Shown: positions 6,670 to 46,883, numbered from the stretch's first letter. The stretch is DNA of 64,000 nucleotides from Gemmatimonadales bacterium (GCA_044229245.1 JBGATI010000001.1:130346-194345), one strand, 5' to 3'. Notes: generated by a model not told the origin, from the letters alone. Translations and numbers: made by a program.

Positions 6670-7677
6670 CTATACCAGCCTTCCGCGCGCGACTTTAGGG
6701 GTGCCTTCGGGACGCTGCGTCTGCAGGATGTTCGAGATACGGAGCCCCACGTAACGGCGACTCTGGCCGAGCGTGCCGAGGAAGCGGCGCTGGCCGCGCA
6801 CATGGAGTTCGACAGGGACGTCGGAGGCATGGCCGGTGTGGATCACCTGGCCGACTTCGAGGCGGCCGATATCGCGCGCCTTGAGATTGAAGAGCGGAAA
6901 CCGGGCCCGCAGATCCAGCCGCGACGCCCTGAGCGACTCCTCGATCGCGCGCCGTCCGGCGTCACGCTCGGCAGGACTCGCCTTGACGCTGTGGAAGTGC
7001 CGGGTCGGCTTTTCCTGCAGGAAGGTCTCGAGCGAGAGGAGCGGCACGCACATCGTGATGAGCCCGGAGAAGGAGCCGGCCCGCACCTCGATGTTGCTCA
7101 CGAGCACGTTGTCTTCCCGGTTCGCGATCTGGAGCGCGTCGGGCGAGGACTCGAAGCTCGCGTAGCTCGGGATGAAGTGGAGGTGCTCGACCCACGCCTC
7201 CTCCACCAGACCCCAGATGCGGTCCGCCATGCCGCGCACCACCGTCCGCTCGAGCAGCGTGAGCGGCCGCTTGATGTCCTGCGCATCGCCCGGGCCGCCG
7301 AACAGGCGGTCGAGCACGTAGTAGGAGAAGTCGGTCCCGAGATCGAGCGCGGCCTGCCCGCCGATCTTGTCGCCCAGCTCGTAGACGTAGGCCGCGCACG
7401 GCGTGGCCAGCGAGAAGATGAACTCGGCGAAGGTCGCCTGCTCCACGCTCGACAGCACCACGTCCACCGAGGTGCGAAGCCGCGACGAGAAGAGCGCCTG
7501 GAGCGAGACGGCGATGCGCTGATAGATCCCGTTCAGCAGCGCCTGCCGGTCCTTCGCGATGCGCGGAGGGCGGAGAAAGTTGTACGGAATGACTTCGACC
7601 GGGCTGTCCGCGGGCGACACCGGGGAGGCGCCCTTGAGCAGCGAGTCGATGTCCTTCTGGGAGAAGACGTCGGCCAT
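6670..7677 (-). CDS. fliM: Flagellar motor switch protein FliM
   Basis: 335 aa. CheY-P binding N-terminus MADVFSQKDIDSLL, a FliM middle domain and a C-terminal SpoA-like domain. Confidence 0.93.
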   Translation of the reverse strand: MADVFSQKDIDSLLKGASPVSPADSPVEVIPYNFLRPPRIAKDRQALLNGIYQRIAVSLQALFSSRLRTSVDVVLSSVEQATFAEFIFSLATPCAAYVYELGDKIGGQAALDLGTDFSYYVLDRLFGGPGDAQDIKRPLTLLERTVVRGMADRIWGLVEEAWVEHLHFIPSYASFESSPDALQIANREDNVLVSNIEVRAGSFSGLITMCVPLLSLETFLQEKPTRHFHSVKASPAERDAGRRAIEESLRASRLDLRARFPLFNLKARDIGRLEVGQVIHTGHASDVPVELHVRGQRRFLGTLGQSRRYVGLRISNILQTQRPEGTPKVARGRLV

Positions 7678-22716: not shown

Positions 22717-22825
22717 AGCCCCCCTCGACAGCGAAATGATCCCGGACATCGCAGGCCTCAGGGCTCGACCGGGACAGGGAGGGGGGCCCCGAATGCCGTT
22801 CGATGGTGTCTGCGAATGTCTGGCC

Positions 22826-31539: not shown

Positions 31540-32652
31540 ATGAAGATCCAGACCAACGTCGCCGCCAACAACGCGTACGGCAACCTCGCCAAGACCGGCA
31601 TGGCCCTCGAGAAGAGCATCGCCAAGCTGTCCAGCGGTTTCCGTATCAACCGTTCGGCCGACGACGCCGCGGGCCTCGCCATCGCGAACAAGCTGCGCAG
31701 TGACGTGCGTTCGCTCCAGGCGGCTCAGCGGAACGCCGCGCAGGGCACCGCGATGCTGCAGATCGCCGACGGCGCGATCGGCACCATCTCGGGCATGCTG
31801 GACCGGCTCAAGGAACTCGCGACCCAGGCCAACTCGGCCAGCATCGGCAGCGAGGCTCCGAAGCTTTCGGCGGAGTACCAGAAGATCACGCAGGAAATCG
31901 ACCGCATCGTGAGCACCACCAAGTATCAGGGCGCGAGCCTGGTCGATGGCACCTTCGGCGCGACGGTCAACACCTCCTCCACCGCCCTGGCGGCGGCGGG
32001 CGTGTCGAACATCAACCTGAACGGCGCAGCGGCCGGGTCGTACACCCTGGCCTCGGCAGCGACGGCGGCCACGCTTACCGCGGCCACCGGCAGCCAGATC
32101 GTCACCGGTATCTCCACCAGCGCGTCTGGCTCGGTGACGTTCAGCAACTTCGGCGTGACGGTCAACGGTGGTTCGAGCTGGGTCGGGGCGCTGAGCCTCA
32201 ACGGCACGAACGTCACTGTCGGCGCGACCACCACGGCCGATTTCATGGTCAGCTCCAGCGGCTCGTACGGCGTTGGCGGCAACGACCGCGTGTCTGTCTC
32301 GGCGGGCAACCTGAATCTGGCCGTGGCTGGCCTGGGCCTCACCACCGGCGGCACGGTCCTGGACACCCAGGCCGGCGCAGCGGCGGAGCTCACCAAGATC
32401 GACACCGCCATCTCGAAGGTGAACGCGGCCATCGGCGACGTGGGTGCGGCGCTGAACCGGTTCGACTACGCGACGGCGAACACCTCTTCGGCCATCCAGA
32501 ACTTCACGGCCGCTGAGAGCACGATTCGCGACGCCGACATGGCGGCGGAAATGACGACCTTCACCAAGAACCAGATCCTGCAGCAGGCTGGTACGGCCAT
32601 GCTCGCCCAGGCCAACCAGGCGCCGCAGACGATCCTCAAGCTGATCCAGTAA
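31540..32652 (+). CDS. fliC: Flagellin
   Basis: 370 aa. MKIQTNVAANNAYGNLAKTGMALEKSIAKLSSGFRINRSADDAAGLAIANKL at the N-terminus. C-terminus AESTIRDADMAAEMTTFTKNQILQQAGTAMLAQANQAPQTILKLIQ. The central region is rich in Ser/Thr/Gly/Asn. Confidence 0.96.
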   Translation: MKIQTNVAANNAYGNLAKTGMALEKSIAKLSSGFRINRSADDAAGLAIANKLRSDVRSLQAAQRNAAQGTAMLQIADGAIGTISGMLDRLKELATQANSASIGSEAPKLSAEYQKITQEIDRIVSTTKYQGASLVDGTFGATVNTSSTALAAAGVSNINLNGAAAGSYTLASAATAATLTAATGSQIVTGISTSASGSVTFSNFGVTVNGGSSWVGALSLNGTNVTVGATTTADFMVSSSGSYGVGGNDRVSVSAGNLNLAVAGLGLTTGGTVLDTQAGAAAELTKIDTAISKVNAAIGDVGAALNRFDYATANTSSAIQNFTAAESTIRDADMAAEMTTFTKNQILQQAGTAMLAQANQAPQTILKLIQ

Positions 32653-32767: not shown

Positions 32768-35149
32768 ATGGCGACGACATCAGGCAGCTCCGCATCGCCG
32801 GCCAGCGCGGTCACCGGCATCATCAGCGGCATCGACTACCGCTCGCTCATCGACCAGATCATCCAGGCCGAAAGCGCGCCGGCGACCCGGCTGCGCAACC
32901 AGGAAACGAAGTTCAACGACCAGCTCAAGGCCTTCGCGACCTACCGCGGACTGCTCGCCGCGGTCCAGTCGGCGGCCGCGACGCTCCAGGACGGCACCGC
33001 CTTCGACGGCGTGTCCGCCACCACCTCCGCGATCTCCGGTACCCGGGCGCTCCTGAGCGCCAGCGGCGGACGCACCGCCGCGACCGGCAGCTATCGCGTC
33101 GAGGTCTCGACGCTTGCCAAGGCGCAGAAGCTTGGCAGCACCAGCTTCGCCAGCGCGAACACCGCGCTGGCAATGACGCAGGGCAGCTTCACGTTGAACG
33201 GCGCCACGATCTCGGTGGACGCCAACGACACGCTGCTCTCCATCCGCGACAAGATCAACAACACCAACACCGGCGCCAGCGCGAGCAAGGTCTCCGCCTC
33301 GGTGCTGCAGGTCGATGCCACCCACTTCCGCCTGGTGCTGACCAGCGAGGCCACTGGGGCGGCGGGCATGACGTTCGCCAATGTGTCGGGCGGTATTCCC
33401 CAGGCGCTCGGCCTGACGAACGGCAGCAACGTGATCCAGGCCGGCGCCGTGCTGGTAGCCGGGGCCGATGCCAGCTTCAAGGTGGACGGCATCGCGATGA
33501 CGCGGACGTCCAACACGGTGACCGACGCGATCCAGGGCGTGACGCTCAACCTCTCCGCCGAGGAGACGGGGGCCGTCACGATGGTCACCATCGAGCATTC
33601 GGGGGACCAGGCGCAGAAGGCGATGCAGAGTTTCGCCGACGCCTGGAACAAGATGGTCGACTTCGTGAAGACCCAGCAGACCGCCCCCAAGAGCGGTGCG
33701 GCCGCGCCGGCGCTCTACAACGATGCCTTTGTCCGCACCGTGTCCGGCACCCTGTCGCGGACCCTGCTGCAGACCATCGGGGGCGCAGCAGCCGATCTCT
33801 CGACTGCGGGCCTCGCGGGGCTGAGCCTCGATCAGACCGGGAAGCTCACCTTCGATTCCACCAAGTTCGGTGCGGCCTTTTCCGGGCGGCTCAGCGACAT
33901 CCGGACCCTGTTCAGCCAGGTCGGCTACACCACCGACTCGCGGGTGAGCTACCTGACTTCGTCGTCGGCCACGGTCGCGGGCACCTACGCGGTCAACATC
34001 ACCCAGGCCGCAACCCAGGCGACGCTCCTCGGCACCGGCTTCAGCGGCACCTACGCCGACGACGCGACGCCGGACACGATGTCGATCACCGAGACGCAGA
34101 GCGGGGCCACCGCCACGATCTCGCTCGCGAACGGCGCGACGACCGACTCGATCGTGAGCGCGCTCAACATCGCCTTCGCCGCCGCGACCAAGCACAAGGT
34201 CGGCACCGGGACCGTGCTCTACGGCGATGTCGCCGGCACCGTCCCGATGACGGCGACCACGACCTTCGCCTCGCTGCGCGCGGCGGGGGGCGGAAGCTTC
34301 GGCGTCGTCAACGGGCAGAGTGTGTCTTACAGCGGCAAGCGCGGCGACGGCTCCACGTTCTCCAGCAGCTTCACGATCACCGACGCCAGCACGAAGACCA
34401 TCGGGGATCTCGTAGGGCAGATCCAGGCCGCCTACGGGTCGACCGGCAATGTCAGCGTCGTCAACGGCACCATCGTGGTCGAGGACAGTCAGGCCCGCAC
34501 CTCCGCGCTCGACCTGACGCTGACCGCCAACAACGAAGGGGGCGGGACACTCAGCTTCGGCGCCACCTCCGTGCTCGCGACCGGGCGCCCCGCGCTGAGC
34601 CTCACCGCCACCAACGTCGGCGGGCAGGTGCAGGTCGCGACGACGAGCTATGGCAGCGCCTCGGGCTTCACCGTGGCCTACACGCCGGGCGGCGCCGACG
34701 GCACCGCGCAGCTCGGCATGGCGACGGGGGCCGTCGCCGGCCTCGACGTGCAGGGCACCCTCGGCGGCTTCGCCGCCACGGGGAGCGGCCGGACACTGCT
34801 CGGCGCCACCGGCACCGCGGTCGACGGCCTGGCGGTGCTCTACTCGGGAACCACGACCGGGGCCGCCGGCGACACCACCATGACCCTGGGGACCGGCGCC
34901 CTGCTGCAGCGCTCGCTCGATACCTGGCTTGCGGCCACCTCCGGAACGCTTGCCACCAAGGAGACCTCGCTCACGACCCGGGCGAAATCGCTCGAGGACC
35001 GCGCGCTGCAGGTCGACGACCGCCTCTCCCGGCGGCGCGAGAGCCTGCTCAAGCAGTATGCCGCAATGGAGACCGCGCTCGCGCGCTTCCAGTCGCAGTC
35101 GAGCAGCATCACCGCGCTGTTCAACAGCACCACGAAGTCCAATGGCTGA
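32768..35149 (+). CDS. fliD: Flagellar filament cap protein FliD (long form)
   Basis: 793 aa. N-terminus ITGIISGIDYRSLIDQIIQAESAPATRLRNQETKFNDQLKAF. C-terminus RRESLLKQYAAMETALARFQSQSSSITALFN. GGGAGG Shine-Dalgarno sequence. Confidence 0.9.
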   Translation: MATTSGSSASPASAVTGIISGIDYRSLIDQIIQAESAPATRLRNQETKFNDQLKAFATYRGLLAAVQSAAATLQDGTAFDGVSATTSAISGTRALLSASGGRTAATGSYRVEVSTLAKAQKLGSTSFASANTALAMTQGSFTLNGATISVDANDTLLSIRDKINNTNTGASASKVSASVLQVDATHFRLVLTSEATGAAGMTFANVSGGIPQALGLTNGSNVIQAGAVLVAGADASFKVDGIAMTRTSNTVTDAIQGVTLNLSAEETGAVTMVTIEHSGDQAQKAMQSFADAWNKMVDFVKTQQTAPKSGAAAPALYNDAFVRTVSGTLSRTLLQTIGGAAADLSTAGLAGLSLDQTGKLTFDSTKFGAAFSGRLSDIRTLFSQVGYTTDSRVSYLTSSSATVAGTYAVNITQAATQATLLGTGFSGTYADDATPDTMSITETQSGATATISLANGATTDSIVSALNIAFAAATKHKVGTGTVLYGDVAGTVPMTATTTFASLRAAGGGSFGVVNGQSVSYSGKRGDGSTFSSSFTITDASTKTIGDLVGQIQAAYGSTGNVSVVNGTIVVEDSQARTSALDLTLTANNEGGGTLSFGATSVLATGRPALSLTATNVGGQVQVATTSYGSASGFTVAYTPGGADGTAQLGMATGAVAGLDVQGTLGGFAATGSGRTLLGATGTAVDGLAVLYSGTTTGAAGDTTMTLGTGALLQRSLDTWLAATSGTLATKETSLTTRAKSLEDRALQVDDRLSRRRESLLKQYAAMETALARFQSQSSSITALFNSTTKSNG

Positions 35150-35504
35150 GCCTTCCGTCCGGCAGGCGGGCACCGACGCGGCGCCAACGCCCATCGCACG
35201 ATTCGAGCAGCTCATCGAATCGGCGATGCAGCTCGCCCGGAGCGGGGCCGGCGAGTCGCTGGCCGAAGTGCTGCGGGAAGCGGATCGCCTGCTCGCCCGC
35301 GAACGCGAACGGCTGGATCGGGACGGGAGCGCGGAGCCCGTGCTGCGCACGATGCAGCGGCGCCTGCTCGAGGTCAGCCGGATCCTCGAGACGGAGCAGC
35401 AGCGCATCGGGCGCGACCTTGCCGCGCTGGCGCAGTCGGCCCAGGGCGACAGTCTGTACGGCGCGGTGCGGCCGGTCACCCTCGCGCTCGACCGCCGGGG
35501 CTAG
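35142..35504 (+). CDS. Hypothetical helical 120-aa protein coupled to fliD (possible FliT/FlaG-like accessory factor)
   Basis: The ATG at 35142 overlaps the fliD stop (35147-35149). The composition suggests an all-helical protein. I recognise no family. The ORF-track start at 34929 lies inside fliD. Confidence 0.5.
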   Translation: MAEPSVRQAGTDAAPTPIARFEQLIESAMQLARSGAGESLAEVLREADRLLARERERLDRDGSAEPVLRTMQRRLLEVSRILETEQQRIGRDLAALAQSAQGDSLYGAVRPVTLALDRRG

Positions 35505-35546
35505 CTCCACCGCTCCACCCGGCGGCCGGCGAACATGAAGCCGCCC

Positions 35547-35573
35547 TCAACGCGCCGCGCCACCTGCCGATAC
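35547..35573 (+). promoter_or_regulatory. Sigma28-type promoter upstream of fliS
   Basis: TCAA-N15-GCCGATAC. It lies 55 nt upstream of the fliS GTG, which has an AGGAGG Shine-Dalgarno sequence. Confidence 0.65.
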
Positions 35574-35628
35574 TCAACCTGTACGCCGGTGCTACCCTGA
35601 TCCCCGGCATCCTTTCAGGAGGTCGCCA

Positions 35629-36033
35629 GTGAGTTACGCCGCGGTCGCCCGCTACCAGCACAACGACGTCTTCTCCATGTCACCCGCCCGGCGGGTGGTG
35701 TTCCTCTACGGCCAGACACTCGCGAGTCTCCGCCAGGCGAGCCGTTATCTCGAGAAGGGGGACATCGAGCAGCGCTCCCGCTGCATGATGCGGGCGAGTG
35801 AGATCGTCGCGGAGCTGCTCTGCTCGCTCGACTTCGAGGCGGGTGGGGAGATCTCCACCAATCTGGCGAAGCTGTATACCTGGATGATGAGCGAGATCTT
35901 CGAGGTCGACCGGCTCCGGGATGCGAAGCGCCTCGACAAGCTGACCAACATCGTCGCCGAGCTGCACGCCGCCTGGAACCAGGCCGCGACGCAGGTGGCG
36001 GATGTGGCGCCCGCGGCGGCCGGGGGCGAGTGA
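35629..36033 (+). CDS. fliS: Flagellin-specific export chaperone FliS
   Basis: 134 aa. YQHNDVFSMSPARRVVFLYGQTLASLRQA...EISTNLAKLYTWMMSEI is a typical FliS four-helix bundle sequence. Confidence 0.92.
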   Translation: MSYAAVARYQHNDVFSMSPARRVVFLYGQTLASLRQASRYLEKGDIEQRSRCMMRASEIVAELLCSLDFEAGGEISTNLAKLYTWMMSEIFEVDRLRDAKRLDKLTNIVAELHAAWNQAATQVADVAPAAAGGE

Positions 36034-36437
36034 GCGACCTGCCCGACGCGCTGCACGAGCGGGCGGCTCGCGCGCTGGTCGGCAGCCGGGTCAACTATGC
36101 ACGATACCTGCAGCTGCTCGAAGCCCAGCGCGCCGCGCTCAGGGCCGACGACATCGACCTCCTCGCCCAGCTCGCGGCCGAGGGGGTCGCGCTGCTTGGA
36201 ACGCTGGAACAGAGCATCCAGCTCCCCCGGGAGCTGGTCGAGGCGCTGAGCCGGTCGGAGGGTCCGCTCCGCGACGACGTGGAGCGGCTGCTGGAGACGG
36301 TTCAGCTCGAGGTGGGCGCTGCGCACGCCGAGATTCGGCGGTTCGCCACGGCGCTGGAGGCCCGGAAGACGGTCATGCTGGCCACGCTCAACAAGCTGCA
36401 CGGTCCCGGCCAGCCCCCACCCCTGGCCACCCCGTAG
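36030..36437 (+). CDS. FlgN/FliT-like flagellar export chaperone (putative)
   Basis: 135 aa. GTGA overlap with the fliS stop. Helical. YARYLQLLEAQRAALRADDIDLLAQLAAEGVALLGTLEQ resembles the FlgN family. Its position matches fliT. Confidence 0.55.
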   Translation: MSDLPDALHERAARALVGSRVNYARYLQLLEAQRAALRADDIDLLAQLAAEGVALLGTLEQSIQLPRELVEALSRSEGPLRDDVERLLETVQLEVGAAHAEIRRFATALEARKTVMLATLNKLHGPGQPPPLATP

Positions 36438-36507
36438 CCCGGGGATGGAATACCGGTCCCGACCCGGCTGATTCTGCCCCCCTCCCCCCACCCGGTCGTT
36501 TCTACCC

Positions 36508-36534
36508 TAAAGGTTTGCCGCCCCCGGACGATAG
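36508..36534 (+). promoter_or_regulatory. Sigma28-type promoter upstream of the first FlgM-like gene
   Basis: TAAAGGTTT...N15...GACGATAG (6 of 8 matches in the -10 element). Confidence 0.5.
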
Positions 36535-36572
36535 TGACTGGGAGAAGGACTTTGACCAGTCTGGAGGGCTAT

Positions 36573-36863
36573 ATGTCAGTACAGTCGGTGCAGTTGCACG
36601 GACTCGAGCAGGTCCCCCCGGTGCGGATAGCCGGGCCCGCGGGCTCTGCCCAGTCCAGAATGGCGGAGGAGCAGCGCGGGCCGTCGCAGCCGCAGGACCA
36701 GGTGATCGTTTCCGAGCAGGCCCGGAAACTGTCGGCCGGGACCGGCAGCGGGCAGAGCACGGGGAGTGGAGCTGACGGCGAAGTCGAACTGCAGCTCGAC
36801 TTCCGCAAGCTTCGCGAGCTCGCCGCCGCCAGTTCGTCCGACGAGCAGACTCAGAGCGCCTGA
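36573..36863 (+). CDS. Small acidic/Ser-Gly-rich protein with partial FlgM-like segment
   Basis: 96 aa from ATG 36573 (GGAGGG Shine-Dalgarno sequence). QDQVIVSEQARKLSA parallels DDQVSISAEARAAGG of the adjacent FlgM. It lacks the FlgM C-terminal GxY motif. Confidence 0.45.
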   Translation: MSVQSVQLHGLEQVPPVRIAGPAGSAQSRMAEEQRGPSQPQDQVIVSEQARKLSAGTGSGQSTGSGADGEVELQLDFRKLRELAAASSSDEQTQSA

Positions 36864-36934
36864 TTCGGCAGGGGCGGCGGCGGGGCAGCGGACCGGATCC
36901 AGCGGGATACCGGCCGGCGTTCCGAAGTCCGTCC

Positions 36935-36961
36935 TCAAGTCCCAATCGGACCGGCCGAAAA
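36935..36961 (+). promoter_or_regulatory. Sigma28-type promoter upstream of flgM
   Basis: TCAA-N15-GCCGAAAA. It lies 24 nt upstream of the flgM ATG, which has a GAGGAG Shine-Dalgarno sequence. Confidence 0.6.
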
Positions 36962-36984
36962 TCAATTGAAGAACGAGGAGCCAC

Positions 36985-37326
36985 ATGTCCATTGATCCCA
37001 CGAAGTCCAGCGGCGCCAATCCCCTGAGCGGCGCACGCCTCGACCAGACCGGCGCCAATCAGTCGGCCCGGCAGTCCGGCCAGGTGAAGCCGGTCGCTCC
37101 GCAGGCGGTGCGCGATGCCTCGCCGGGTGACGACCAGGTTTCGATCTCGGCCGAGGCGCGTGCCGCCGGTGGCACCGAGGCGGGCACCAGCGCGACCGGG
37201 ATCCCGGCGGAGCGGCTGCGCGGCATTCTGAAGCGCATCTCCTCGGGCTACTACGACACCCCGCAGGTCCGCGACCGAATCGCCCAGAAGCTCCAGGCGG
37301 AGCTGGGGACGAAGCCGACGCAGTGA
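36985..37326 (+). CDS. flgM: Anti-sigma-28 factor FlgM
   Basis: 113 aa. Disordered N-terminus, DQVSISAEA, and C-terminal ERLRGILKRISSGYYDTPQVRDRIAQKL, which is a typical FlgM C-terminal helix region. Confidence 0.8.
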   Translation: MSIDPTKSSGANPLSGARLDQTGANQSARQSGQVKPVAPQAVRDASPGDDQVSISAEARAAGGTEAGTSATGIPAERLRGILKRISSGYYDTPQVRDRIAQKLQAELGTKPTQ

Positions 37327-37351
37327 CACCTGAGCTCACGGAGCGAGCCCA

Positions 37352-37729
37352 ATGAAGTGCCTGGTTGTGGATGACAGCGCCACCATGCGGCGGATCGTGG
37401 TCAATGCCCTGAAGAGCATTGGATACGACCATGTCGTGGAGGCCGGCGACGGCAGCGATGCCCTGCAGAAGTGTGATCCGTCGATCGAACTGGTGATCAC
37501 CGACTGGAACATGCCGGTGATGGGCGGGCTCGACTTCGTGAAGGGTGTCCGCGCGAACCCGCAGCATGCCAAGACGCCGATCCTGATGGTGACGACCCGC
37601 AGCGTGAAAGAGGACATCATGCAGGCGGTCGAGGCCGGCGTCTCCGGATACATCCTCAAGCCGTTCACGCCCCAGGTGCTGAAGGAGAAGATCGACCAGA
37701 TCCTCTCGCTCACCTCCGGGTCGGCCTGA
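37352..37729 (+). CDS. cheY: CheY-like single-domain response regulator
   Basis: 125 aa. Has DD (VVDDSATMRR), the phospho-Asp context VITDWNMPVMGG, Thr (MVTTRS) and Lys (YILKPF). Confidence 0.9.
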   Translation: MKCLVVDDSATMRRIVVNALKSIGYDHVVEAGDGSDALQKCDPSIELVITDWNMPVMGGLDFVKGVRANPQHAKTPILMVTTRSVKEDIMQAVEAGVSGYILKPFTPQVLKEKIDQILSLTSGSA

Positions 37730-37754
37730 GCCACGCCAGACCACGGAGGGTGTC

Positions 37755-38501
37755 ATGGATGCCGCCCAGGTCAAGGCGCTCGCGACCGAGCTGGAGACCA
37801 CGCTCGGACTGCTGGGTGACCTGATCGCCGAATTGAAGAGCCACAAGGAGGAATGGCAGAGTTCCGGCCGCGTGGCCGAACTCGTCAGCCGGCTCGCGAG
37901 CCAGCCCAATCTGGCCGAGCTGCCGGCCGTCCTGCTCCGCGCCCACGCCGAGATCAGCGAGATCCTCGGCGGCATCCGCCTGACACGGGAAGCGATCGAG
38001 GCGCACGCCGTCGAGCGGATCCGCGACACCAAGGACAAGCTCTCCGACGTCACCACGACGACCGAATCCGCGACCCTCGAGCTGATGAACGGGCTCGACC
38101 GCTCGCTCGAGCTGATCACCACCCTGGAGACGCAGGCCAAGGGGTCCGCGCCCGCGGACGGCTTCGACAGCCTCCGGGAGGAAGTCAGCACGCTGTACAA
38201 CCACCTCCAGTTCCAGGACATCACTGCCCAGCAGTTGCAGGGTGTCGGGGCGGCCCTTCTCGATCTCGAGACCCGCGTCTCGGCGGTCGCGGCCCTCTTC
38301 GATAGCGCGCTGGGCCACGGCCCACGGGCGGAGATCCTGCTCCGCGCCATGGACGCGTCGTCGGTCCATCTGCCGTTCAATCCGGACGCGACCATGAAGC
38401 GCTCGCACGCGGATCAGGCCACCATCGATGAAGCCTTCAAGGGGGCCCGGAATGGGAACGCCAGCGACACCGGATGCGCCGTTCCCGGCGCCCGGCCCTG
38501 A
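37755..38501 (+). CDS. CheZ-like phosphatase (putative)
   Basis: 248 aa, helical. Contains LQFQDITAQQLQ, which matches the CheZ catalytic D-x3-Q motif (E. coli FQDLTGQ). It lies directly downstream of cheY. Confidence 0.65.
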   Translation: MDAAQVKALATELETTLGLLGDLIAELKSHKEEWQSSGRVAELVSRLASQPNLAELPAVLLRAHAEISEILGGIRLTREAIEAHAVERIRDTKDKLSDVTTTTESATLELMNGLDRSLELITTLETQAKGSAPADGFDSLREEVSTLYNHLQFQDITAQQLQGVGAALLDLETRVSAVAALFDSALGHGPRAEILLRAMDASSVHLPFNPDATMKRSHADQATIDEAFKGARNGNASDTGCAVPGARP

Positions 38502-39834
38502 GCCCCCGCCCGAGGCGGAAGCCCACGCCCTGCTGGACGGCATTCAGCGGGACAAGCTTTCGCTCATCGGGCACATGGCCTCAAGCATCGCCCACGAGCT
38601 GAGTAATCCGCTCGCGACCATCGTCGCGAGTACCCAGGCCATTCTGTCCTTCTGGCCGCGCCCCGGCATGCCCGGGGCCCCCAGCGGCACGAGCCGCGAT
38701 CCGTGGAGCCCGCCGCCGGAATTTTCGGCCCAGGGCGTGCCGCTCCGCCAGCTGCGCGAGGACCTGGAGCTCGTCCTCGAGGAGGCCCGCCGGGCCGGCG
38801 ACATCGTCCACGGCCTGCTCGCCAGCGCCCGTTGTCATCCGCCCGAGTGGCGCATCTGCTCCGCGGCGGACGTGGTCCGGCGCACCGTCGCGCTCTGCCG
38901 CCACCACCTGAAGCTGCACAACATCTCGCTGCAGGCGCCGTTCTTCGACCCGCACGAGGGCTTTCCCCTCTGGAGCCGGGTGCGGGGCGATGCCAATCAG
39001 CTGCAGCAGGTGTTGCTCAACCTGATCATCAACGCCCAGCAGGCGATCACCGCCCATCGCGGCTACGGCACCGTGCGGGTGACCCTGACCGCTGACGGCA
39101 CCGACCGGGTCGTGCTGACGGTGGAGGATGACGGGCCGGGCGTCCCCGAAGGCCTCCGCGACGCGATCTTCCGCCCCTTCTACACCACCAAGCCCGCGGG
39201 CCAGGGCACCGGCCTCGGCCTCTCGATCTCGGCTGGCATCATCCGCGCGCATGGAGGCGACATCCAGGTGGGCACGCATCCGACCGGCGGCGCCGTCTTC
39301 CGGGTGATCCTGCCGTCACTCGCGGCCAGCGATCGCCTGACACAGACCGCGCCCAGTCCGGAAGACACGGCAGGCACCGCGACCGCGGTCCAGCCGATCC
39401 TCACCCTCCCGGGCGAGGCCGACCGGGAATCGACGCAGCTGCGCCGGGTCCTGCTGGTGGACGATGAGGTCGGCATCCGGCGCAGCGTGGGGCGGTTCCT
39501 GCGGCGCTACGGCTACCAGGTCACCGACGTCCCGAGCGGGCAGGCGGCGCTCAATGCCCTGAGCAGCGGCCGGTATGACGTCGTCGTCTCCGACCTGCGC
39601 ATGCCGGGGCTCTCCGGCGAGGAGTTCTTCCAGCTGGTCCGTCGCGATTTCCCGGAGATGACGACGCGGGTGGTCTTCACCAGCGGCGACATCCTGCGGG
39701 AGGAAACCCAGGACTTCCTCGCCCGGAGCGGCTGCCCTTCCCTGCAGAAGCCCTACGAGCTCTCCGAACTCGTGCGGGTGCTGGCCGACCTCTGTCCTCC
39801 GCTGCCGGCGACCGATCGCCGCGCGACGGCCTGA
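38428..39834 (+). CDS. Cytoplasmic hybrid histidine kinase (DHp-CA-REC) without a recognisable sensor domain
   Basis: H-box MASSIAHELSNPLATI, N-box LLNLIINAQQA, G1 VEDDGPGVPE, G2 GTGLGLSIS, and REC VLLVDDE...VVVSDLRMPGLSG. Alternative start at 38452. The ORF overlaps the end of the cheZ-like gene. Confidence 0.88.
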   Translation: MKPSRGPGMGTPATPDAPFPAPGPEPPPEAEAHALLDGIQRDKLSLIGHMASSIAHELSNPLATIVASTQAILSFWPRPGMPGAPSGTSRDPWSPPPEFSAQGVPLRQLREDLELVLEEARRAGDIVHGLLASARCHPPEWRICSAADVVRRTVALCRHHLKLHNISLQAPFFDPHEGFPLWSRVRGDANQLQQVLLNLIINAQQAITAHRGYGTVRVTLTADGTDRVVLTVEDDGPGVPEGLRDAIFRPFYTTKPAGQGTGLGLSISAGIIRAHGGDIQVGTHPTGGAVFRVILPSLAASDRLTQTAPSPEDTAGTATAVQPILTLPGEADRESTQLRRVLLVDDEVGIRRSVGRFLRRYGYQVTDVPSGQAALNALSSGRYDVVVSDLRMPGLSGEEFFQLVRRDFPEMTTRVVFTSGDILREETQDFLARSGCPSLQKPYELSELVRVLADLCPPLPATDRRATA

Positions 39835-41448
39835 ATGATGGCCAGCCGCGACCCGCGCGAAGCCCTGCTCGCCCCCTATCCGATGCCCTCCATCGATCCG
39901 TCGTCCTCCTCGATGAGCAGCGAGCGCCTCGTGCTCGCCGCCCTGCCTGACGCGATCCTCGTCCTGGATCCCCTCGGCGTCGTCCGCGAGGCCAACCCCG
40001 CGGCCGAGCGACTCTTCGCGCGGACGCATGACGCGCTGCGCAGCGCGCCGGTCGACAAGCTCCTGATCATCACCGATGGCGGGCCGGGCACCGGGGGGCT
40101 CGCCGCCTGGCTGCGCACGGCGCGGATCCCGGGCGCGCAGCGCTGGAGCGGGTGTCGCGGCCGGCTGCCCGACGGAGGGGAGTTCACCTGCGACGCGAGC
40201 CTCGCGCCCATCGCGGGCGCCGGGGCCCCAGGCCGCTGGGTGCTCTCGATCGTGGAAACGGGGAACCGCGAGTTCCAGACGACCCAGCGGCGCGAATCGG
40301 CGAAGATGGCTGCGATCGCCACGCTCGCGTCTGGCATCGCGAACGATTTCAACAACGCGCTCGCCGCCATCACCGGCAGCATCGAGGCGGCCCGCCTCCG
40401 GATCGTGTCGCAGGATCGGGTGCCGCCACGGGAGCTGCTCGAGGCGAAGGAAGCCACCCGCGGCGCGGCCCGCCTGGTCCGCCGACTGCTGAACTTCGCC
40501 CGGCCCTCCCCCGGCACGCGCCGGACCATCGAGCCCGGCCAGCTGATCGAGGAGACCGCGCAGGTCCTGCGGCGCGACCTCGATCCGCGGATCACGCTCG
40601 TCACCCGGCTCGATCACGGCGACTGGCGGCTGCACGCCGACATGGAGCAGCTCACCGACCTGCTCGTCAGCCTGGGCCACAATGCGATCGAAGCAATGCC
40701 GCTCGGCGGGGTCCTCACCCTCAGCACCGCGCGGGTCGCGGGGGGCTGGGGCGCGGGTGCCCCCGAGGCACTGGCCGGACGGGAATTCCTGCGGATCGAG
40801 GTGAAGGACACCGGGACCGGCATCCCGGCCGAGATCCTTCCCCGCATCTTCGAGCCGTTCTTCACCACCAAGGAAGCGGGTCGCGGCTCGGGACTCGGGC
40901 TCGCGACCGCCTACGCCGTCCTGCGCCAGCACGAGGGCGGGATCACCGTGGAGAGCGCCCCCGGCGCGGGGTCGACATTCCAGATCTACCTGCCGCGCAC
41001 GATGGAGCCGCAGACCGTCTCCGGCCCCACCCTCGTCCTGGAGCCAGGCAGCGGTACGGGAAACATCCTGCTGGTCGACGACGAGTCCGCCGTCCGCCGG
41101 CCGCTCCGTCAGGCGCTCGGACTGTGCGGCTATGTCGTGCTCGAGGCCCGCGATGGTCTCGAGGCGCTCCGGATTCACGGCCAGAGCGACACCCCGGTCG
41201 ACCTGGTGATCCTCGACGTCAAGATGCCCGGGATGTCGGGCTGGGATGTGCTGGCGGAGCTCAAACGGCGTGCGCCAACCCTGCCGGTGATCCTCACGAG
41301 CGGCTACACGAAGGAAGACAGCACCCCGCCGGCCGCCCCGGCGGCGCCCGACGCCTATCTCCCGAAGCCGTACGACCTCGCGGAACTGACCGAGCAGGTG
41401 CGCCGGCTCCTGAAACCGCGCCGGCCGGCCGATACTTCACGATCATGA
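39835..41448 (+). CDS. PAS-containing hybrid histidine-kinase-like protein with Asn replacing the H-box histidine
   Basis: 537 aa. PAS-like N-terminus. DHp reads LASGIANDFNNALAAITGS (the canonical motif is GIAHDFNN). The HATPase domain is intact (GSGLGLATAYAVLRQHEGGITVES) and so is the REC domain (ILLVDDES...DLVILDVKMPGMSG). Confidence 0.88.
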   Translation: MMASRDPREALLAPYPMPSIDPSSSSMSSERLVLAALPDAILVLDPLGVVREANPAAERLFARTHDALRSAPVDKLLIITDGGPGTGGLAAWLRTARIPGAQRWSGCRGRLPDGGEFTCDASLAPIAGAGAPGRWVLSIVETGNREFQTTQRRESAKMAAIATLASGIANDFNNALAAITGSIEAARLRIVSQDRVPPRELLEAKEATRGAARLVRRLLNFARPSPGTRRTIEPGQLIEETAQVLRRDLDPRITLVTRLDHGDWRLHADMEQLTDLLVSLGHNAIEAMPLGGVLTLSTARVAGGWGAGAPEALAGREFLRIEVKDTGTGIPAEILPRIFEPFFTTKEAGRGSGLGLATAYAVLRQHEGGITVESAPGAGSTFQIYLPRTMEPQTVSGPTLVLEPGSGTGNILLVDDESAVRRPLRQALGLCGYVVLEARDGLEALRIHGQSDTPVDLVILDVKMPGMSGWDVLAELKRRAPTLPVILTSGYTKEDSTPPAAPAAPDAYLPKPYDLAELTEQVRRLLKPRRPADTSRS

Positions 41449-41840
41449 AAGCGCTGATCATCGAAGACGAGCCGATGACCCGGCTCCTGCTCAAGCGGCT
41501 CCTCACCCGCTTCTTTCCGCACAACGTGCTCGAGGCCTCGGATGGGGAGGAAGGCCTCGCCGTGGTCGAGAAGGAGCGGCCGGTCATCGTGTTCTGCGAT
41601 CTCTACATGCCGAAACTCGATGGCATCGGGTTCCTCGAGCGGCTCCGGGCCAATCCCGAGTTCGCCGAGCTGCCGGTCGTGGCGATTTCCTCCGCCAAAG
41701 ACCGGGATGTGGTGCTGAAGCTGGTCGATCTCCGCATCGTCGACTACCTCATGAAGCCGATCGATCTCGAACAGACCTTCAAGCGCCTCGAAAAGCTGAT
41801 CCCCCTCGTCGTTGCCCCGAAGGAAGCCGCCAAGCCGTAG
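41445..41840 (+). CDS. Single-domain response regulator
   Basis: 131 aa from ATG 41445 (ATGA overlap with the upstream stop). MKALIIEDEP...VFCDLYMPKLDG...DYLMKP. It is the last part of an out-of-frame 562-aa track ORF. Confidence 0.88.
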   Translation: MKALIIEDEPMTRLLLKRLLTRFFPHNVLEASDGEEGLAVVEKERPVIVFCDLYMPKLDGIGFLERLRANPEFAELPVVAISSAKDRDVVLKLVDLRIVDYLMKPIDLEQTFKRLEKLIPLVVAPKEAAKP

Positions 41841-41873
41841 CGCCACCCGGGCTGGACGCGGTACGTTACGGAC

Positions 41874-42260
41874 ATGCCACGCCAGAACATCTCCGGCGGT
41901 GCCCCCTGGGAACCGATTGTCGGGTATTCCCGCGCTGTTCGCGTCGGTAACCACATTCACGTCTCCGGCACGACCGCGGTCGGGCCCGATGGCAGCGTGG
42001 TCGGGCCGGGCGATCCGTACGCGCAGACCGTCCACGCCATTCGCCTCATCGAGCGCGCGCTGCAGCAGGCCGGCGCCGGGCTGAGCCACGTGGTCCGTAC
42101 CCGCATCTATACCACCGACATCTCGCAGTGGGAGGCTATCGGCCGCGCCCACGGCGAATTCTTCCGTGACATCCGCCCGGCGGCCACCATGGTCGAAGTG
42201 AAAGCACTCATCGACCCTGCCCTGCTGGTGGAAATCGAGGCCGAAGCGATCCTGCCATGA
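41874..42260 (+). CDS. RidA/YjgF/TdcF family protein
   Basis: 128 aa. [18 protein letters not shown]...RTRIYTTD...[24 protein letters not shown]. Confidence 0.88.
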
Positions 42261-43051
42261 CCACCGCGATCACCGTCGTCGATGCCTTCACCGACCTGCC
42301 CTTCGCCGGCAACCCGGCCGCCGTCTGCGTGCTGCCCCGTCCCGCCACGGAGTCGTGGATGCGAGATGTCGCCCGGGAGATGAACCTCTCGGAGACCGCC
42401 TTCCTGCATCGGGTGGAAGATGGATTCTCGCTCCGGTGGTTCACGCCGACCGTGGAGGTCGACCTCTGCGGGCACGCCACCCTCGCGAGCGCGCATGTGC
42501 TCTGGAAGCAGGCCTACCTGCCGCCGCACGCAGTGGCGCGGTTCCACACCCGGAGCGGACTGCTCACCGCGACCTACGCGACGGACCGGATCACGCTCGA
42601 CTTCCCGGCCAAGCTCGCGGTCGCGGCCGAGGCCCCGCCGGCGCTGCTGAGCGCGCTAGGTGTGACCGGGGCGGTCTGGATCGGGAAGAACCAGTTCGAC
42701 TATCTCGTCGAAGTGAGCAGCGAAGCGGCGGTTCGCAAGCTCACGCCGGATCATGGCCGGCTCGCGACCCTCCCGGTCCGCGGGGTGATCGTGACGAGCA
42801 GGGCGGATACGGGGAGCCCCTTCGACTTCGTCTCCCGCTTCTTTGCCCCTGGCAGCGGCGTGGCCGAAGATCCCGTCACCGGCTCGGCCCACTGCGCCCT
42901 CGCCCCGTACTGGCGCGGCAAAATCGGCCGCGACGCGATGACCGGCTATCAGGCCTCGGCCCGGGGCGGCACGGTCTACGTCGAGTGCCGCGGTGACCGC
43001 GTCCTGCTCGGCGGCCAGGCGGTCACGGTGCTGCGGGGCACGCTGGTCTAG
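42257..43051 (+). CDS. PhzF-family isomerase
   Basis: 264 aa. [37 protein letters not shown] and a second-half pseudo-repeat with GSAHCAL. Confidence 0.88.
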
Positions 43052-43108
43052 GCTGCGACGCACCCGGCATCGTGGGAATCTTCCTCCCGATTCCCAAACG
43101 AGGCCCTG

Positions 43109-44419
43109 ATGCGCGTCGCTCTCGCTGCCCTGCTCCTGCTGGCCCGGCCCCTCGCGGCCCAGGAGCCGGTACCCGCCCTCCTCACCGCTTTCGACCGCAT
43201 GGCGGCCCGGCCCCTCTGGCCGGGCTTCACTCCGGCGTCCACTCCCCTCGCCATCTACGACGGCCAGCGCACCTGGCTGATTCGCCACCCCGCCCCTCCG
43301 GCGGAGTTCGCGACCGTGGATGGAGCGCCTGACACTCGCGTGATGGCTGGGCGCTACCCGGAGGTCTCCGCCAACACCCACGCGATGATCGGCGGGGTGC
43401 CGACCGCCACGCTCTTCCTGCCCGAGCACCCCAGCGACCCGAGGCATCTCGCAGCCACGCTGCTCCACGAGGTGTTCCACGTCTATCAGTCGCAGGCCCA
43501 CCCCGGCTGGTTCGGCAACGAAGCAACCCTCTTCACCTATCCCGTGACCGACTCGGCCGCGCAGCAGCTGCAGCGGCTGGAGACCGAGGCCTTCCGTCGC
43601 GCCCTACTGGCGCATTCAGCGCTGGGGTGCTGGGCCTCTCGAGCGATGACGCTCCGGGAGGCACGGGCGGCCCGCGTGGGCGCGGAAGCGATCGCGTATG
43701 AGCGGGGGAATGACTTGAACGAGGGACTCGCAACCTGGATCGGGTGGCGCGGCGCCGGGGATCAGCCCGATTCACTCGTCCCGAGCAAGGGGTTCGCCCC
43801 TGATGGCGTGCGGCTCCGCGCCTACGCGGTCGGACCGGCGCAGGCCGCTGTGCTCGACCGCCTGCGCCCGGCGTGGCAGGCAGAACTCAGCGCGGATACG
43901 ACGCTCACTCTCGACGCACTGCTCGGCAGAGCGACCGCCTCACTCAGCTGCCGCGCCGACTTCACGAGGCGCGAAGTCGATTCTGTCGGGGCGCTCGCCG
44001 GAGAAGAGACTGGGCAGGTACTGGGCAAGCGGGCCGCGCTTCGGACCGAGTTCCTCGCGAGACAGGGCTGGCAAGTGCTGATCGAGGTGCCGGTGACCGC
44101 GCCGTTCTGGCCGGAGCAGTTCGATCCGTGGAACGTCGTGCCGCTCGCCGATGGGGAGATCCTGCATCAGCGGCACGTTCGCCTGGGCGGGAATCACGGC
44201 CGCATCGACGTGCTCGGGCACTGGGCACTCACCAGTGCCGCGGGGGCGCATCCGCTCTTCAACGGTCTTCGGCGGGTGCTGCTCGCCGGGCTGGCGGCCG
44301 CGCCCTCGGTCACGCAGCGGGGCGACTCATTGCTCGTCGCGGGCGAGGGCATCGACGGTCACTTCAAAGGAATGACCGTCGATACGGCCGGGCAACGGAT
44401 CACGCTGCGCGCGAAGTGA
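43109..44419 (+). CDS. Secreted hypothetical protein with an HExxH motif
   Basis: 436 aa. Signal peptide MRVALAALLLLARPLAAQ. Contains LLHEVFHVYQ. I recognise no family. Confidence 0.6.
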   Translation: MRVALAALLLLARPLAAQEPVPALLTAFDRMAARPLWPGFTPASTPLAIYDGQRTWLIRHPAPPAEFATVDGAPDTRVMAGRYPEVSANTHAMIGGVPTATLFLPEHPSDPRHLAATLLHEVFHVYQSQAHPGWFGNEATLFTYPVTDSAAQQLQRLETEAFRRALLAHSALGCWASRAMTLREARAARVGAEAIAYERGNDLNEGLATWIGWRGAGDQPDSLVPSKGFAPDGVRLRAYAVGPAQAAVLDRLRPAWQAELSADTTLTLDALLGRATASLSCRADFTRREVDSVGALAGEETGQVLGKRAALRTEFLARQGWQVLIEVPVTAPFWPEQFDPWNVVPLADGEILHQRHVRLGGNHGRIDVLGHWALTSAAGAHPLFNGLRRVLLAGLAAAPSVTQRGDSLLVAGEGIDGHFKGMTVDTAGQRITLRAK

Positions 44420-44453
44420 GCGTGGGCCGCCGCCAGCCGAACAGAGCACGACC

Positions 44454-46883
44454 TCAGGGCTGGCCCATCACCTTCACGGGATATGGGACACCACCCTGCA
44501 ACACCCCGGCGGCGCCGAGTTGCCCGGAGCTGTTGTCTCCCCAGCAGTACGCAACGCCCCCGCTCGTGAGACCGCAGGCGTGAGCAAACCCTGCCGCGAT
44601 GGTCGCGAACTGGAACCCGCCGGTGACGAGCTGGGGCTTGCCGAAGCCATTGCCGGGAGGACTGACGGACCCGGTGCCCAGTTGCCCCTGGTCGTTGGTG
44701 CCCCAGCAGTACCCTTCGCCGGCCAGCGCGACGCCGCAGAGGAGCGTGCCCCCGGCCTCGAGCGAACCGAAGGACACACCGCCCGGGAACAGTATCGGAG
44801 TGCGCGAATTGGCGTAGGGCCAGCAATAGACATCGCCGCCGGCGATCAGGCCGCACGCGGCACCGCTGGTCGCCGCACCGACCGCGAGATCGGTAAAGCT
44901 CAATCCACCCACGACCGCGAGAGGAATCGGGCTGTCGGTATGGACGCCGTCGCCGAGCATGCCGCTGTACTGGGAGCCCCAGCACTGGATCTGACCCGCG
45001 GCCGTCAATCCGCAGGTGTGCATGTCACCGACGGCGACATCCACGAACGCCGGTCCGCCGCTGACGGGAACGGGAGTGGTCCGCAGCGTGACGGTGCCGT
45101 CACCGAGCTCGCCGGAGCTGTTGTACCCCCAGCAGGAGGTCCCGCCGCTGGTGATAATGACGCAGCTGTGCGATGAGCCCACCGCAAGCCTGGAGTAGGT
45201 CTGTCCCCCGCTGACATCCAGGGGAACATCCGAGGCATACGTGACTCCGTCGCCGAGACTCCGGGCGCCACCATATCCCCAGCAGTAGAGCGCGCCCGTC
45301 GTCGTAAGCCCGCAGGAGAGTGAGGACCCGAGGTCGATGCGGCTGAAGCTGAGCCCGCCGGCGACCGCGACGGGCGCCAGCCGCCGGGTATGCGAGTTAT
45401 CGCCGAGTTCTCCGCTGTTGTTGTCCCCCCAGCACCATGCGGCGCCGGCGGTGTCGATGCCGCAGCTGCGGAAGTCGCCCGCGGCAAGGCGGGTGAACTG
45501 ATGACCGCCGGCGACCTGAACCGGCACCGCGGCGTTGGTCCCGTTTCCGTCCCCCAGCGAGCCGTCGGTTCCGTAGCCCCAGCACCATGCGGCACCGCCC
45601 GCGGTGAGTCCGCAGGAATGGTACGCGCCGACGACCAGACTGGTGAACGTCAAGCTGCCCGACACGGCGATGGCCGGGTTCTCGATGTCCAACTGATCGA
45701 ACCCGCCGCTGGCCAGCTGGCCATACCGGTTCCCTCCCCAGCACCAGGCGTGGCCTTGCGCGTCGAGTCCGCAGGCATGCTCCTCGCCTTCGTCGATCGC
45801 GGTGTACGTGGTAGGCCCGCCCTCGGACACCGGCACGTAGTTCTGGACGCCGCCCTCACCGACGCGCCGGAATCCCCAGCATTCCACCGCGCCGCCTGTC
45901 AGGAGCCCGCAGCTGCGCGAGGACTTCACGGTGAGCGCGGTGTAGGTATGGCCTCCGCTCACGGAAGCCGGTGAGGTGCGGTAATAGACGGTGTCATTGC
46001 CCAGCTGGCTCTGCGCATTGTCGCCCCAGCACCACGCCGCCCCCGCCGCGGTCACTCCGCAGCTCCAGGAGCCGGCGGCATGAATGCTGGTGAGCGGGGG
46101 TGCCCCCGTCACGGCCACCGGCGTCAGGCGCTGGAGCCGCGTCCCGTCGCCTAACTCTCCCGTCGGGTTGTATCCCCAGCAATAGGACTGTCCGCCTGCA
46201 ATCGCACAGGCATGGCCGTCGGGCTTCGTGACCACGGAGGCGCCTGCCAGGCCGGCCACCGCGACTGGAGCCCGCCGGGTGATGGTGGTGCCGTCACCCA
46301 GTTGGCCGGTATCGTTGTTCCCCCAGCAGTACACTGCACCCCCGATCGCCACGCCACACACGGCGTTGAACCCGCTCGCCAGGGAGGTGAAGCGCACGCT
46401 CCCGGCCACGGGATGCGGCACCAGCACGGAACGGGTCGAGTCCGAGGATCCGGTTCCCAGCTCGCCCCAGTAGTTGGAGCCCCAGCACCAGGCCTCCCCC
46501 GTCGTGGTGAGTCCACACGTGAAGGTTCCTCCGGGCCGGAGCATCGTGAACTGCAGGGTCCGGATGGTGAGTGGCCGGCTGCCGCTGACTCCACCGATGG
46601 TGGCGACAATCGCCGTGCTTCCAGCGGCGTGCGCCGTCACCTGCCCGCCGGCGGAGACACTGGCGATCGCCGGGTCACCAGAACTCCAGAGGATCTGGCG
46701 ACCGGGCAGCGTGTCACCCTGGGCGCTGAGCGCGAAGGCCGTGAGCGGCACCGTCTCCGAGAGGATGAGGGTGTCCTGCGGCGTGCCGACGATCACGCTG
46801 GCGACCGGCGTGAGATCAGGCGGCGTCAGGGCATCCTCGCCACAGGCGGCGAGCAGCAACAGGATCGGCAGGAGGCGTCTCAT
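44454..46883 (-). CDS. Lipoprotein with Big_2 (Ig-like) domain and about 14 RCC1-like beta-propeller repeats
   Basis: 809 aa. Lipobox LLLLAAC, a Big_2-like segment (ILWSSGDPAIASVSAGGQVTAHAAGSTAIVA), and repeated CWG-N-x-GQLGDG motifs. Confidence 0.85.
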   Translation of the reverse strand: MRRLLPILLLLAACGEDALTPPDLTPVASVIVGTPQDTLILSETVPLTAFALSAQGDTLPGRQILWSSGDPAIASVSAGGQVTAHAAGSTAIVATIGGVSGSRPLTIRTLQFTMLRPGGTFTCGLTTTGEAWCWGSNYWGELGTGSSDSTRSVLVPHPVAGSVRFTSLASGFNAVCGVAIGGAVYCWGNNDTGQLGDGTTITRRAPVAVAGLAGASVVTKPDGHACAIAGGQSYCWGYNPTGELGDGTRLQRLTPVAVTGAPPLTSIHAAGSWSCGVTAAGAAWCWGDNAQSQLGNDTVYYRTSPASVSGGHTYTALTVKSSRSCGLLTGGAVECWGFRRVGEGGVQNYVPVSEGGPTTYTAIDEGEEHACGLDAQGHAWCWGGNRYGQLASGGFDQLDIENPAIAVSGSLTFTSLVVGAYHSCGLTAGGAAWCWGYGTDGSLGDGNGTNAAVPVQVAGGHQFTRLAAGDFRSCGIDTAGAAWCWGDNNSGELGDNSHTRRLAPVAVAGGLSFSRIDLGSSLSCGLTTTGALYCWGYGGARSLGDGVTYASDVPLDVSGGQTYSRLAVGSSHSCVIITSGGTSCWGYNSSGELGDGTVTLRTTPVPVSGGPAFVDVAVGDMHTCGLTAAGQIQCWGSQYSGMLGDGVHTDSPIPLAVVGGLSFTDLAVGAATSGAACGLIAGGDVYCWPYANSRTPILFPGGVSFGSLEAGGTLLCGVALAGEGYCWGTNDQGQLGTGSVSPPGNGFGKPQLVTGGFQFATIAAGFAHACGLTSGGVAYCWGDNSSGQLGAAGVLQGGVPYPVKVMGQP

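Follow-up and report, generated by a model that had tools for sequence, protein, structure and literature searches.

In the late flagellar operon of a Gemmatimonadales genome, the genes of a CheY and of a divergent CheZ-like phosphatase are followed by those of a sensor-less hybrid kinase (HK1) and of a hybrid kinase whose phospho-acceptor histidine is replaced by asparagine (HK2, named HK2N for this class). They were analysed in a 64,000-nt window on contig C34 of the 4.8 Mb genome (G000). The kinase/pseudokinase pair is firmly linked to cheY-cheZ and takes the position that cheA has in relatives, and this arrangement is conserved across the whole family, which is apparently known solely through metagenome-assembled genomes. 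The accepted view, to our knowledge, is that chemotactic signals are passed to the flagellar switch by CheA alone. Even if only an accessory module, the pair would exemplify in nature how an additional input, independent of the receptor array, can be placed beside CheY. New here, as far as sequences can tell, are the age of the His-to-Asn clade, the linkage of HK2N to cheY-cheZ and HK1, and the presence of cheA-cheW-cheR-cheD in the same slot of Gemmatimonas-like relatives.

The HK1-HK2N pair and the slot after cheZ

HK2 had been described in a first-pass annotation of the window as a PAS-containing kinase-like protein lacking the phospho-acceptor His, and this holds. Its DHp domain reads GIANDFNN where homologues have HDFNN and contains no other His, while the ATP-binding (CA) boxes and the receiver Asp are intact. 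The phospho-acceptor position is Asn in 16/16 orthologues. A homologue search covering 5.8 billion proteins gave 74 sequences of 47% identity or more in which the H-box can be read; every one of them has Asn, and essentially all homologues at 43% identity or below carry His (HDFNN). These sequences mark HK2N as an old, discrete clade of His-to-Asn pseudokinases, monophyletic by motif, which joins the few known examples of histidine pseudokinases (DivL, PsmA). The DHp is the best conserved domain of HK2N (90% mean pairwise identity, 73% invariant columns) and the PAS the least conserved (60%), being absent in some deep members. The D-x-x-N positions, which HisKA kinases require for phosphatase activity, are kept beside the missing His. 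The Asn codon AAC lies a single base from the His codon CAC, as would fit a pseudogene in decay or a normal kinase hit by a recent point mutation. We give this explanation practically no credence and rejected it on three grounds: the Asn is fixed in orthologues and in the wider set of homologues, the frame is open with a GC content at third codon positions (GC3) of 0.90, and the DHp is highly constrained.

HK1 reads as a soluble hybrid histidine kinase. A variable Pro-rich stretch of about 35-45 residues is all that precedes its H-box (HELSNPL), whose His stands some 40-48 residues into the protein, and the domain scan of HK1 revealed no sensor domain, in agreement with the first description of a kinase with a short N-terminal stretch ahead of its DHp. 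The motifs HELSNPL, NLIINAQQA, DDGPGV, FRPFYTTK, GTGLGLS and SDLRMPG (H, N, G1, F and G2 boxes and the REC Asp, respectively) are invariant in 17 orthologues. The ATG at 38452 is preceded by an AAGGGGG ribosome-binding site and aligns with the orthologue starts. This likely start codon makes the last 50 nt of cheZ part of HK1 as well; relatives overlap similarly, and it is this tail of CheZ that varies. The loop between the DHp helices of HK1 contains a variable Pro/Gly/Ser-rich insert of about 28 residues (residues ~77-104, 38650-38740), with 49% identity versus about 90% for the helices themselves.

The gene order fliC-fliD-fliS-...-flgM-cheY-cheZ-HK1-HK2N is kept in 16 of 18 related Gemmatimonadales loci, and locus L025 shows the same arrangement with disrupted frames. 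Three distant HK2N contigs (49-53% identity in HK2) display the same context, a 124-125-aa CheY, a 236-252-aa CheZ-like protein, an HK1-type kinase and then HK2N, after which a large PAS hybrid kinase, the third kinase of the row, takes the place of the small response regulator (RR). The first-pass annotation had let its proposal stand or fall with the conservation of the cassette beside flagellar genes in relatives, which the close loci and the distant contigs both display. In every context examined, HK2N directly follows HK1 or, in one genus, a lone HK1-type receiver, together with cheY-cheZ, and cheZ divergence across these HK2N-linked loci goes down to about 48%. The small RR is 38-98% identical in relatives, and its gene is missing in two loci (L015 and L022). 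In two loci of deep-branching cassette lineages (L077, 9310-12243; L078, 9634-13107), the protein that stands in for the small RR after HK2N is a very large multi-PAS HATPase-REC protein, listed without HisKA match in L077.

Reduced forms are found after cheZ in other genera of the family: a lone receiver related to the REC of HK1 (g30), that receiver plus an HK2N with Asn (g23), a protein made of a pseudo-receiver and a receiver (g4), a remnant with degenerate DHp and CA (g28), or nothing (g10). CheY identity is 68-82% in the lineages that have only the receiver, the pseudo-receiver protein, the remnant or nothing at this place. A cheA-cheW-cheR-cheD set comes after cheZ in two other families, the sister family, with Gemmatimonas-sized complete genomes among its members, and a more distant one. 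Orthologues of this slot-type cheA (56-64% identity) are confined to those cheA-adjacent lineages, and none was found in the genomes of the window's family (f1). In a CheY+CheZ tree rooted on the cheA-adjacent forms, the window's family is a fully supported clade, with HK1+HK2N lineages at its base and crown and the reduced forms nested between them. The pair thus had a single origin, at the loss of the neighbouring cheA set, and several genera trimmed it afterwards. The loci provide a comparative series for module exchange and reduction, comprising the full pair, the receiver only, degenerate remnants, and cheA in the same slot.

One locus of the sister family (L073, G283:C1:146000-165500) has an insertion between cheZ and cheA that encodes a 488-aa HisKA-HATPase-REC-Hpt kinase and a 249-aa RR. 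Hybrid kinases have thus become associated with cheY-cheZ a second time, independently.

CheY, CheZ and their transcription unit

CheY is a 125-aa protein made of a single REC domain (Pfam E=6e-26). It shares 50% of 120 aligned residues with E. coli CheY and is by far the best CheY match of the genome, the next best reaching 40%. Alignment places D7, D8, D51, T81, Y100 and K103 on E. coli D12, D13, D57, T87, Y106 and K109; all catalytic residues are present and the protein carries a DWNMP motif. Its top NCBIfam match is the CheY equivalog NF007901, at 129.3 bits under a cut-off of 189 in a model tuned to enteric CheY. Identity is 89-98% across cassette-bearing relatives, and helix alpha1 (TMRRIVxNxLKxxG) differs little from that of E. 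coli CheY and is unchanged between cheA-adjacent and cassette forms. On the motor side, FliM (6670-7677, minus strand) starts with MADVFSQKDIDSLL, a CheY-P-binding peptide of the LSQxxIDxLL type, showing that this N-terminus has been retained, as first noticed.

The gene after cheY encodes a 248-aa protein. Pfam CheZ (PF04344) is the top family in 16/16 orthologues, below the cut-off in each search (best E=9.5e-7; 20.9 bits for the window protein versus a cut-off of 30.7). Precomputed Pfam annotation assigns PF04344 to many of the orthologues, and JGI labels some of them CheZ. The motif LQFQDITAQQ, with D155 and Q159 invariant in orthologues, corresponds to the catalytic Asp-x3-Gln motif of CheZ (PMC7750401), preceded by FQ and located on the second helix of the predicted hairpin. 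Alignment to E. coli CheZ with hhalign superposes FQDITAQ on FQDLTGQ and RIRDTKDKL on IPDARDRL at a probability of 2%, which is support at the motif level only. In the AlphaFold2 (AF2) model, a long helical hairpin (H56-128 and H134-181, pLDDT 80-90) is followed by a low-confidence linker and then by a helix (218-232) over the conserved sequence ADQAxIDEAFKGAR, which resembles the CheY-binding tail of E. coli CheZ. A sequence-profile search of the PDB with the CheZ alignment returned nothing at E<=1, and Foldseek of the model against the PDB returned generic coiled coils only (E>0.5). Taken on its motifs, the protein is a remote CheZ and a predicted CheY-P phosphatase. CheZ is generally regarded as proteobacterial (PMC7750401, citing Wuichet 2007), and a literature search on Gemmatimonadetes and CheZ found nothing relevant; the protein described here would extend CheZ-type phosphatases to Gemmatimonadota. 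The cheY and cheZ products are best explained as an ordinary flagellar switch regulator and its dedicated putative phosphatase.

The coordinates of these genes and of their neighbours are collected in Table 1. The five signalling genes are tightly packed after flgM with no promoter visible between them, as the first-pass annotation had noted, and a sigma28-type promoter motif is found nearby only 5' of flgM. In detail, flgM and cheY, like cheY and cheZ, are 25 nt apart, cheZ and HK1 overlap by 50-74 nt according to the start chosen, HK1 and HK2 abut (0 nt), and HK2 and RR share an ATGA overlap that would couple their translation. The flgM gene has no Pfam or NCBIfam match, and its orthologues lie directly 5' of cheY in 17 of the 18 close loci. 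A scan with the pattern T[AC]AA-N14-17-G[AC]CGA[AT]A detected five sigma28-type sites in the window (22826, 31429, 35547, 36508 and 36935) versus 0.18 expected from shuffling, all on the plus strand and ahead of late genes. The same scan found none between 36960 and 43051. We did not find any sigma70-like promoter in 35000-44500, where the sigma70 and terminator scans gave nothing above chance. Because the sigma28 motifs occur only upstream of the cassette, the production of cheY and cheZ as late, sigma28-dependent genes alongside flgM appears as the best explanation. Downstream, ridA begins 33 nt past RR and overlaps the phzF-like gene by 4 nt. The position of these two genes is kept in most relatives, even in those with reduced kinases, and they probably lie outside the signalling unit.

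Table 1. Late flagellar, signalling and related features; positions are those of the window unless a contig is named
Feature	Position	Strand	Basis or remark
sigma54-dependent activator, FleR/FlgR-like	21262-22749	-	REC + Sigma54_activat + HTH_8; beside flgB
fliC	31540-32652	+	late flagellar gene string
fliD	32768-35149	+	late flagellar gene string
fliS	35629-36033	+	late flagellar gene string
FlgN-like gene	36030-36437	+	late flagellar gene string
FlgM-like gene	36534-36863	+	late flagellar gene string
sigma28-type motif TCAA-N15-GCCGAAA	36935-36960	+	ahead of flgM; last before the cassette
flgM, anti-sigma28 factor, first gene of the unit	36985-37326	+	position and the first-pass reading of its C-terminal helices
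cheY	37352-37729	+	single REC
cheZ-like	37755-38501	+	weak Pfam CheZ match
HK1 hybrid kinase	38428 or, likelier, 38452 to 39834	+	HisKA + HATPase_c + REC
HK2 (HK2N) hybrid pseudokinase	39835-41448	+	PAS + HATPase_c + REC; HisKA at E=0.006 only
RR, single-domain response regulator	41445-41840	+	REC, E=1.7e-23
ridA and phzF-like genes	41874-43051	+	Pfam Ribonuc_L-PSP and PhzC-PhzF
flagellar-linked CheA	C34:105886-108252		Hpt, H-kinase_dim, HATPase_c, two CheW domains

The phosphodonor of CheY and the role of the kinase pair

Domain searches of the window found no gene for cheA, cheW, a methyl-accepting chemotaxis protein (MCP), cheB or cheR, as the first-pass annotation had stated. It had gone on to propose hybrid kinases, in place of CheA, as the source of phosphate for CheY. 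The search for canonical che clusters over the whole genome gave a different picture, with 7 CheW-domain matches, 2 canonical CheA (Hpt, H-kinase_dim, HATPase_c and CheW domains), about 14 MCPs, CheB, CheR and CheX. One CheA is encoded on C34 in a complete che cluster, which lies 22 kb upstream of the window and also comprises cheW, several MCP genes, two cheB/cheR pairs, cheX and another cheY (CheY2). Past this cluster, motAB, flgK and further flg genes, fliA and flhG lead into the window, making up one motility super-locus. CheA of the C34 type is present in 11 of the 12 f1 genomes searched, among them all 3 other cassette-bearing genomes of the same genus searched (G025, G045 and G122), and in part of the sister family, two genomes of which have both CheA types. 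The C34 CheA has tandem CheW-like (P5) domains and a long Ala/Pro/Lys-rich linker, with no obvious P2.

The second CheA belongs to a cheW-cheY-cheA-cheC cluster on C39, near a gene for an MglA-like GTPase. This region (C39:73900-91200) also contains TPR proteins, cheR, cheB and two cheW, interleaved with the MglA-like small GTPase and a roadblock-like protein, and is reminiscent of Frz-type, non-flagellar systems. Just past the C34 che cluster, the dense signalling end of the contig (C34:81000-92000) encodes several very large Hpt hybrid kinases (frames of 895-1274 aa) and a stand-alone Hpt.

We consider it fairly probable that the CheA of the C34 che cluster is the main phosphodonor of CheY, because the genome has CheA, CheY is so close to its E. 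coli counterpart and CheY orthologues outlast the kinase part of HK1. Feeding by hybrid kinases instead of CheA is not supported, though not refuted either: two CheA are at hand, cheY-cheZ is kept where the kinases are lost, and the alpha1 surface is E. coli-like. That HK1 and HK2N form an accessory kinase/pseudokinase module, with CheY served by CheA, is a reading whose chances we regard as evenly balanced. The following scheme, with all its phosphotransfer steps and its output, is proposed from gene content, motifs, conservation, synteny and the presence of CheA. The CheA encoded 22 kb upstream would phosphorylate CheY, and CheZ would dephosphorylate CheY-P. HK1 and HK2N would constitute a two-protein signalling module co-translated with CheZ, in which HK1 would be the only protein capable of autophosphorylation, loading its own receiver, the receiver of HK2N and, where present, the small RR. 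HK2N, predicted to be incapable of autophosphorylation, would act as a regulatory partner, a phosphatase or a phospho-sensor, in the style of EspA/EspC or DivL/CckA, and its PAS may be an extra input in this genus. The module is probably made only in flagellated cells, where it would tune the CheY-P level or motor behaviour.

Several observations weigh against this scheme. The C34 che cluster, with its own CheY2 and CheX, could be self-contained, which would leave the window CheY without a dedicated CheA. The slot CheA of the sister lineages has no orthologue here and HK1-HK2N stands in its slot, which fits kinase replacement. The DHp subtypes of HK1 and HK2N differ (HELSNPL versus NDFNNAL), and heterodimerisation is not expected. 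Finally, no output domain or target of the module could be identified.

Kinase replacement would make HK1, regulated by HK2N, the main CheY phosphodonor and the functional successor of the former slot CheA, with CheZ resetting the signal and the motor steered by cytoplasmic two-component input in place of a receptor array. Its strongest point is that HK1-HK2 occupies exactly the slot that holds cheA-cheW-cheR-cheD in the outgroup. The slot CheA type is missing from every f1 genome, HK1+HK2N is basal in the f1-type clade of the CheY+CheZ tree, as expected if it arose when that cheA was lost, and the 50-nt cheZ/HK1 overlap suggests coupled expression; the CheY2 and CheX of the remaining flagellar-linked cluster also fit. 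We nevertheless consider it unlikely that HK1 is the main donor. Several nested lineages lack the HK1 kinase domains or both kinases, yet conserve cheY-cheZ; the docking surface of CheY is the same as in CheA-served CheYs; hybrid kinases normally phosphorylate their own receiver; and CheA is present in every cassette-bearing genome searched. It is similarly doubtful that, on loss of the slot cheA-cheW-cheR-cheD, HK1 and HK2N became a receptor-array-independent kinase system for CheY, acting directly or via reverse transfer through CheA P1/Hpt. Should HK1-HK2N drive CheY, flagellar switching would be at least partly set by cytoplasmic two-component input and reset by CheZ. The lack of an Hpt partner, once considered as an argument for the use of CheA P1, was dropped, since 11 Hpt domains are encoded in the genome, one of them in a short stand-alone frame (C34:91271-91510).

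These Hpt domains are also compatible with HK1, HK2N and RR being co-transcribed with late flagellar genes but acting elsewhere, on gene expression, a second messenger or a motile-to-sessile decision, with an unlinked response regulator or Hpt protein as intermediate. No domain of the module is motor-related, the small RR is variable or missing, and the unrelated ridA and phzF lie downstream in the same direction, all of which would suit such a role. Against it stands the persistence of the linkage: HK2N follows cheY-cheZ and HK1 in 16 of the 18 close loci and in 3/3 distant contigs in spite of the CheZ divergence, it is still found after cheZ and a lone HK1-type receiver in the g23 genus, and the reduced forms keep a receiver at exactly the same place. 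Linkage this persistent usually means joint function, and a role unrelated to CheY or the motor seems to us rather improbable.

A last candidate substrate is the orphan sigma54-dependent receiver-activator of the window, for which HK1 might be a soluble kinase of the FlgS/FleS type. The activator has no adjacent kinase, and HK1 is soluble and sensor-less, as is FlgS. However, 22 of the 23 flagellated Gemmatimonadota genomes searched keep the activator (58-95% identity), including some without HK1, and on this basis the candidate was rejected as very unlikely. Moreover, HK1 is a hybrid kinase encoded in the late operon and would be made after sigma54-dependent genes are needed, and another small kinase is encoded beside motAB (C34:120643-121401).

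Comparison with known signalling systems

The cheY-cheZ pair has its closest parallels in Proteobacteria. E. coli tar-tap-cheRBYZ and Pseudomonas/Vibrio fliA-cheY-cheZ-cheA-cheB contain the same single-domain CheY with an adjacent DxxxQ phosphatase and show late, sigma28-linked expression like that predicted here. The Pseudomonas/Vibrio order cheY-cheZ-cheA-cheW is moreover that of the Gemmatimonas-like relatives. In contrast, the CheZ described here is very divergent, below the Pfam cut-off, in a lineage outside Proteobacteria, and HK1-HK2N stands in place of cheA.

For the kinase pair, we compared three types of system. Caulobacter DivL is a pseudokinase with Tyr for His, which senses DivK-P through its DHp and controls the hybrid kinase CckA (PMC4211667, PMC5361649). 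HK2N is likewise PAS-containing and His-less with a conserved DHp, and is encoded next to a partner hybrid kinase and single-domain receivers (CheY and RR), which could be the ligands that it senses. However, it has Asn instead of Tyr and a receiver of its own, which DivL lacks, and its context is a flagellar operon with no ChpT/CtrA-type output. The resemblance is one of logic only, the NCBIfam CckA matches reaching 283 bits versus a cut-off of 1000.

In Myxococcus xanthus, the hybrid kinases EspA and EspC reportedly work as one unit in which only one autophosphorylates and phosphorylates both receivers, a result said to come from Schramm, Lee and Higgs (J Biol Chem, 2012). Here too, two hybrid kinases appear as a unit, and the NCBIfam models that score HK1 highest are named EspC and EspA. 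The proteins are not orthologues, HK1 scoring 195 bits versus an equivalog cut-off of 1200, and EspC, unlike HK2N, retains its His. The output of the Esp system is MrpC proteolysis during development, not motility.

Rhodobacter sphaeroides CheA3/CheA4 and Pseudomonas RetS/GacS are pairs with complementary defects or with one kinase-like protein modulating another, as would be the case for HK1 and HK2N. The split CheA3/CheA4 of R. sphaeroides is linked to CheY control. The differences are that HK1 is complete alone, that neither HK1 nor HK2N is a CheA, and that their DHp subtypes differ.

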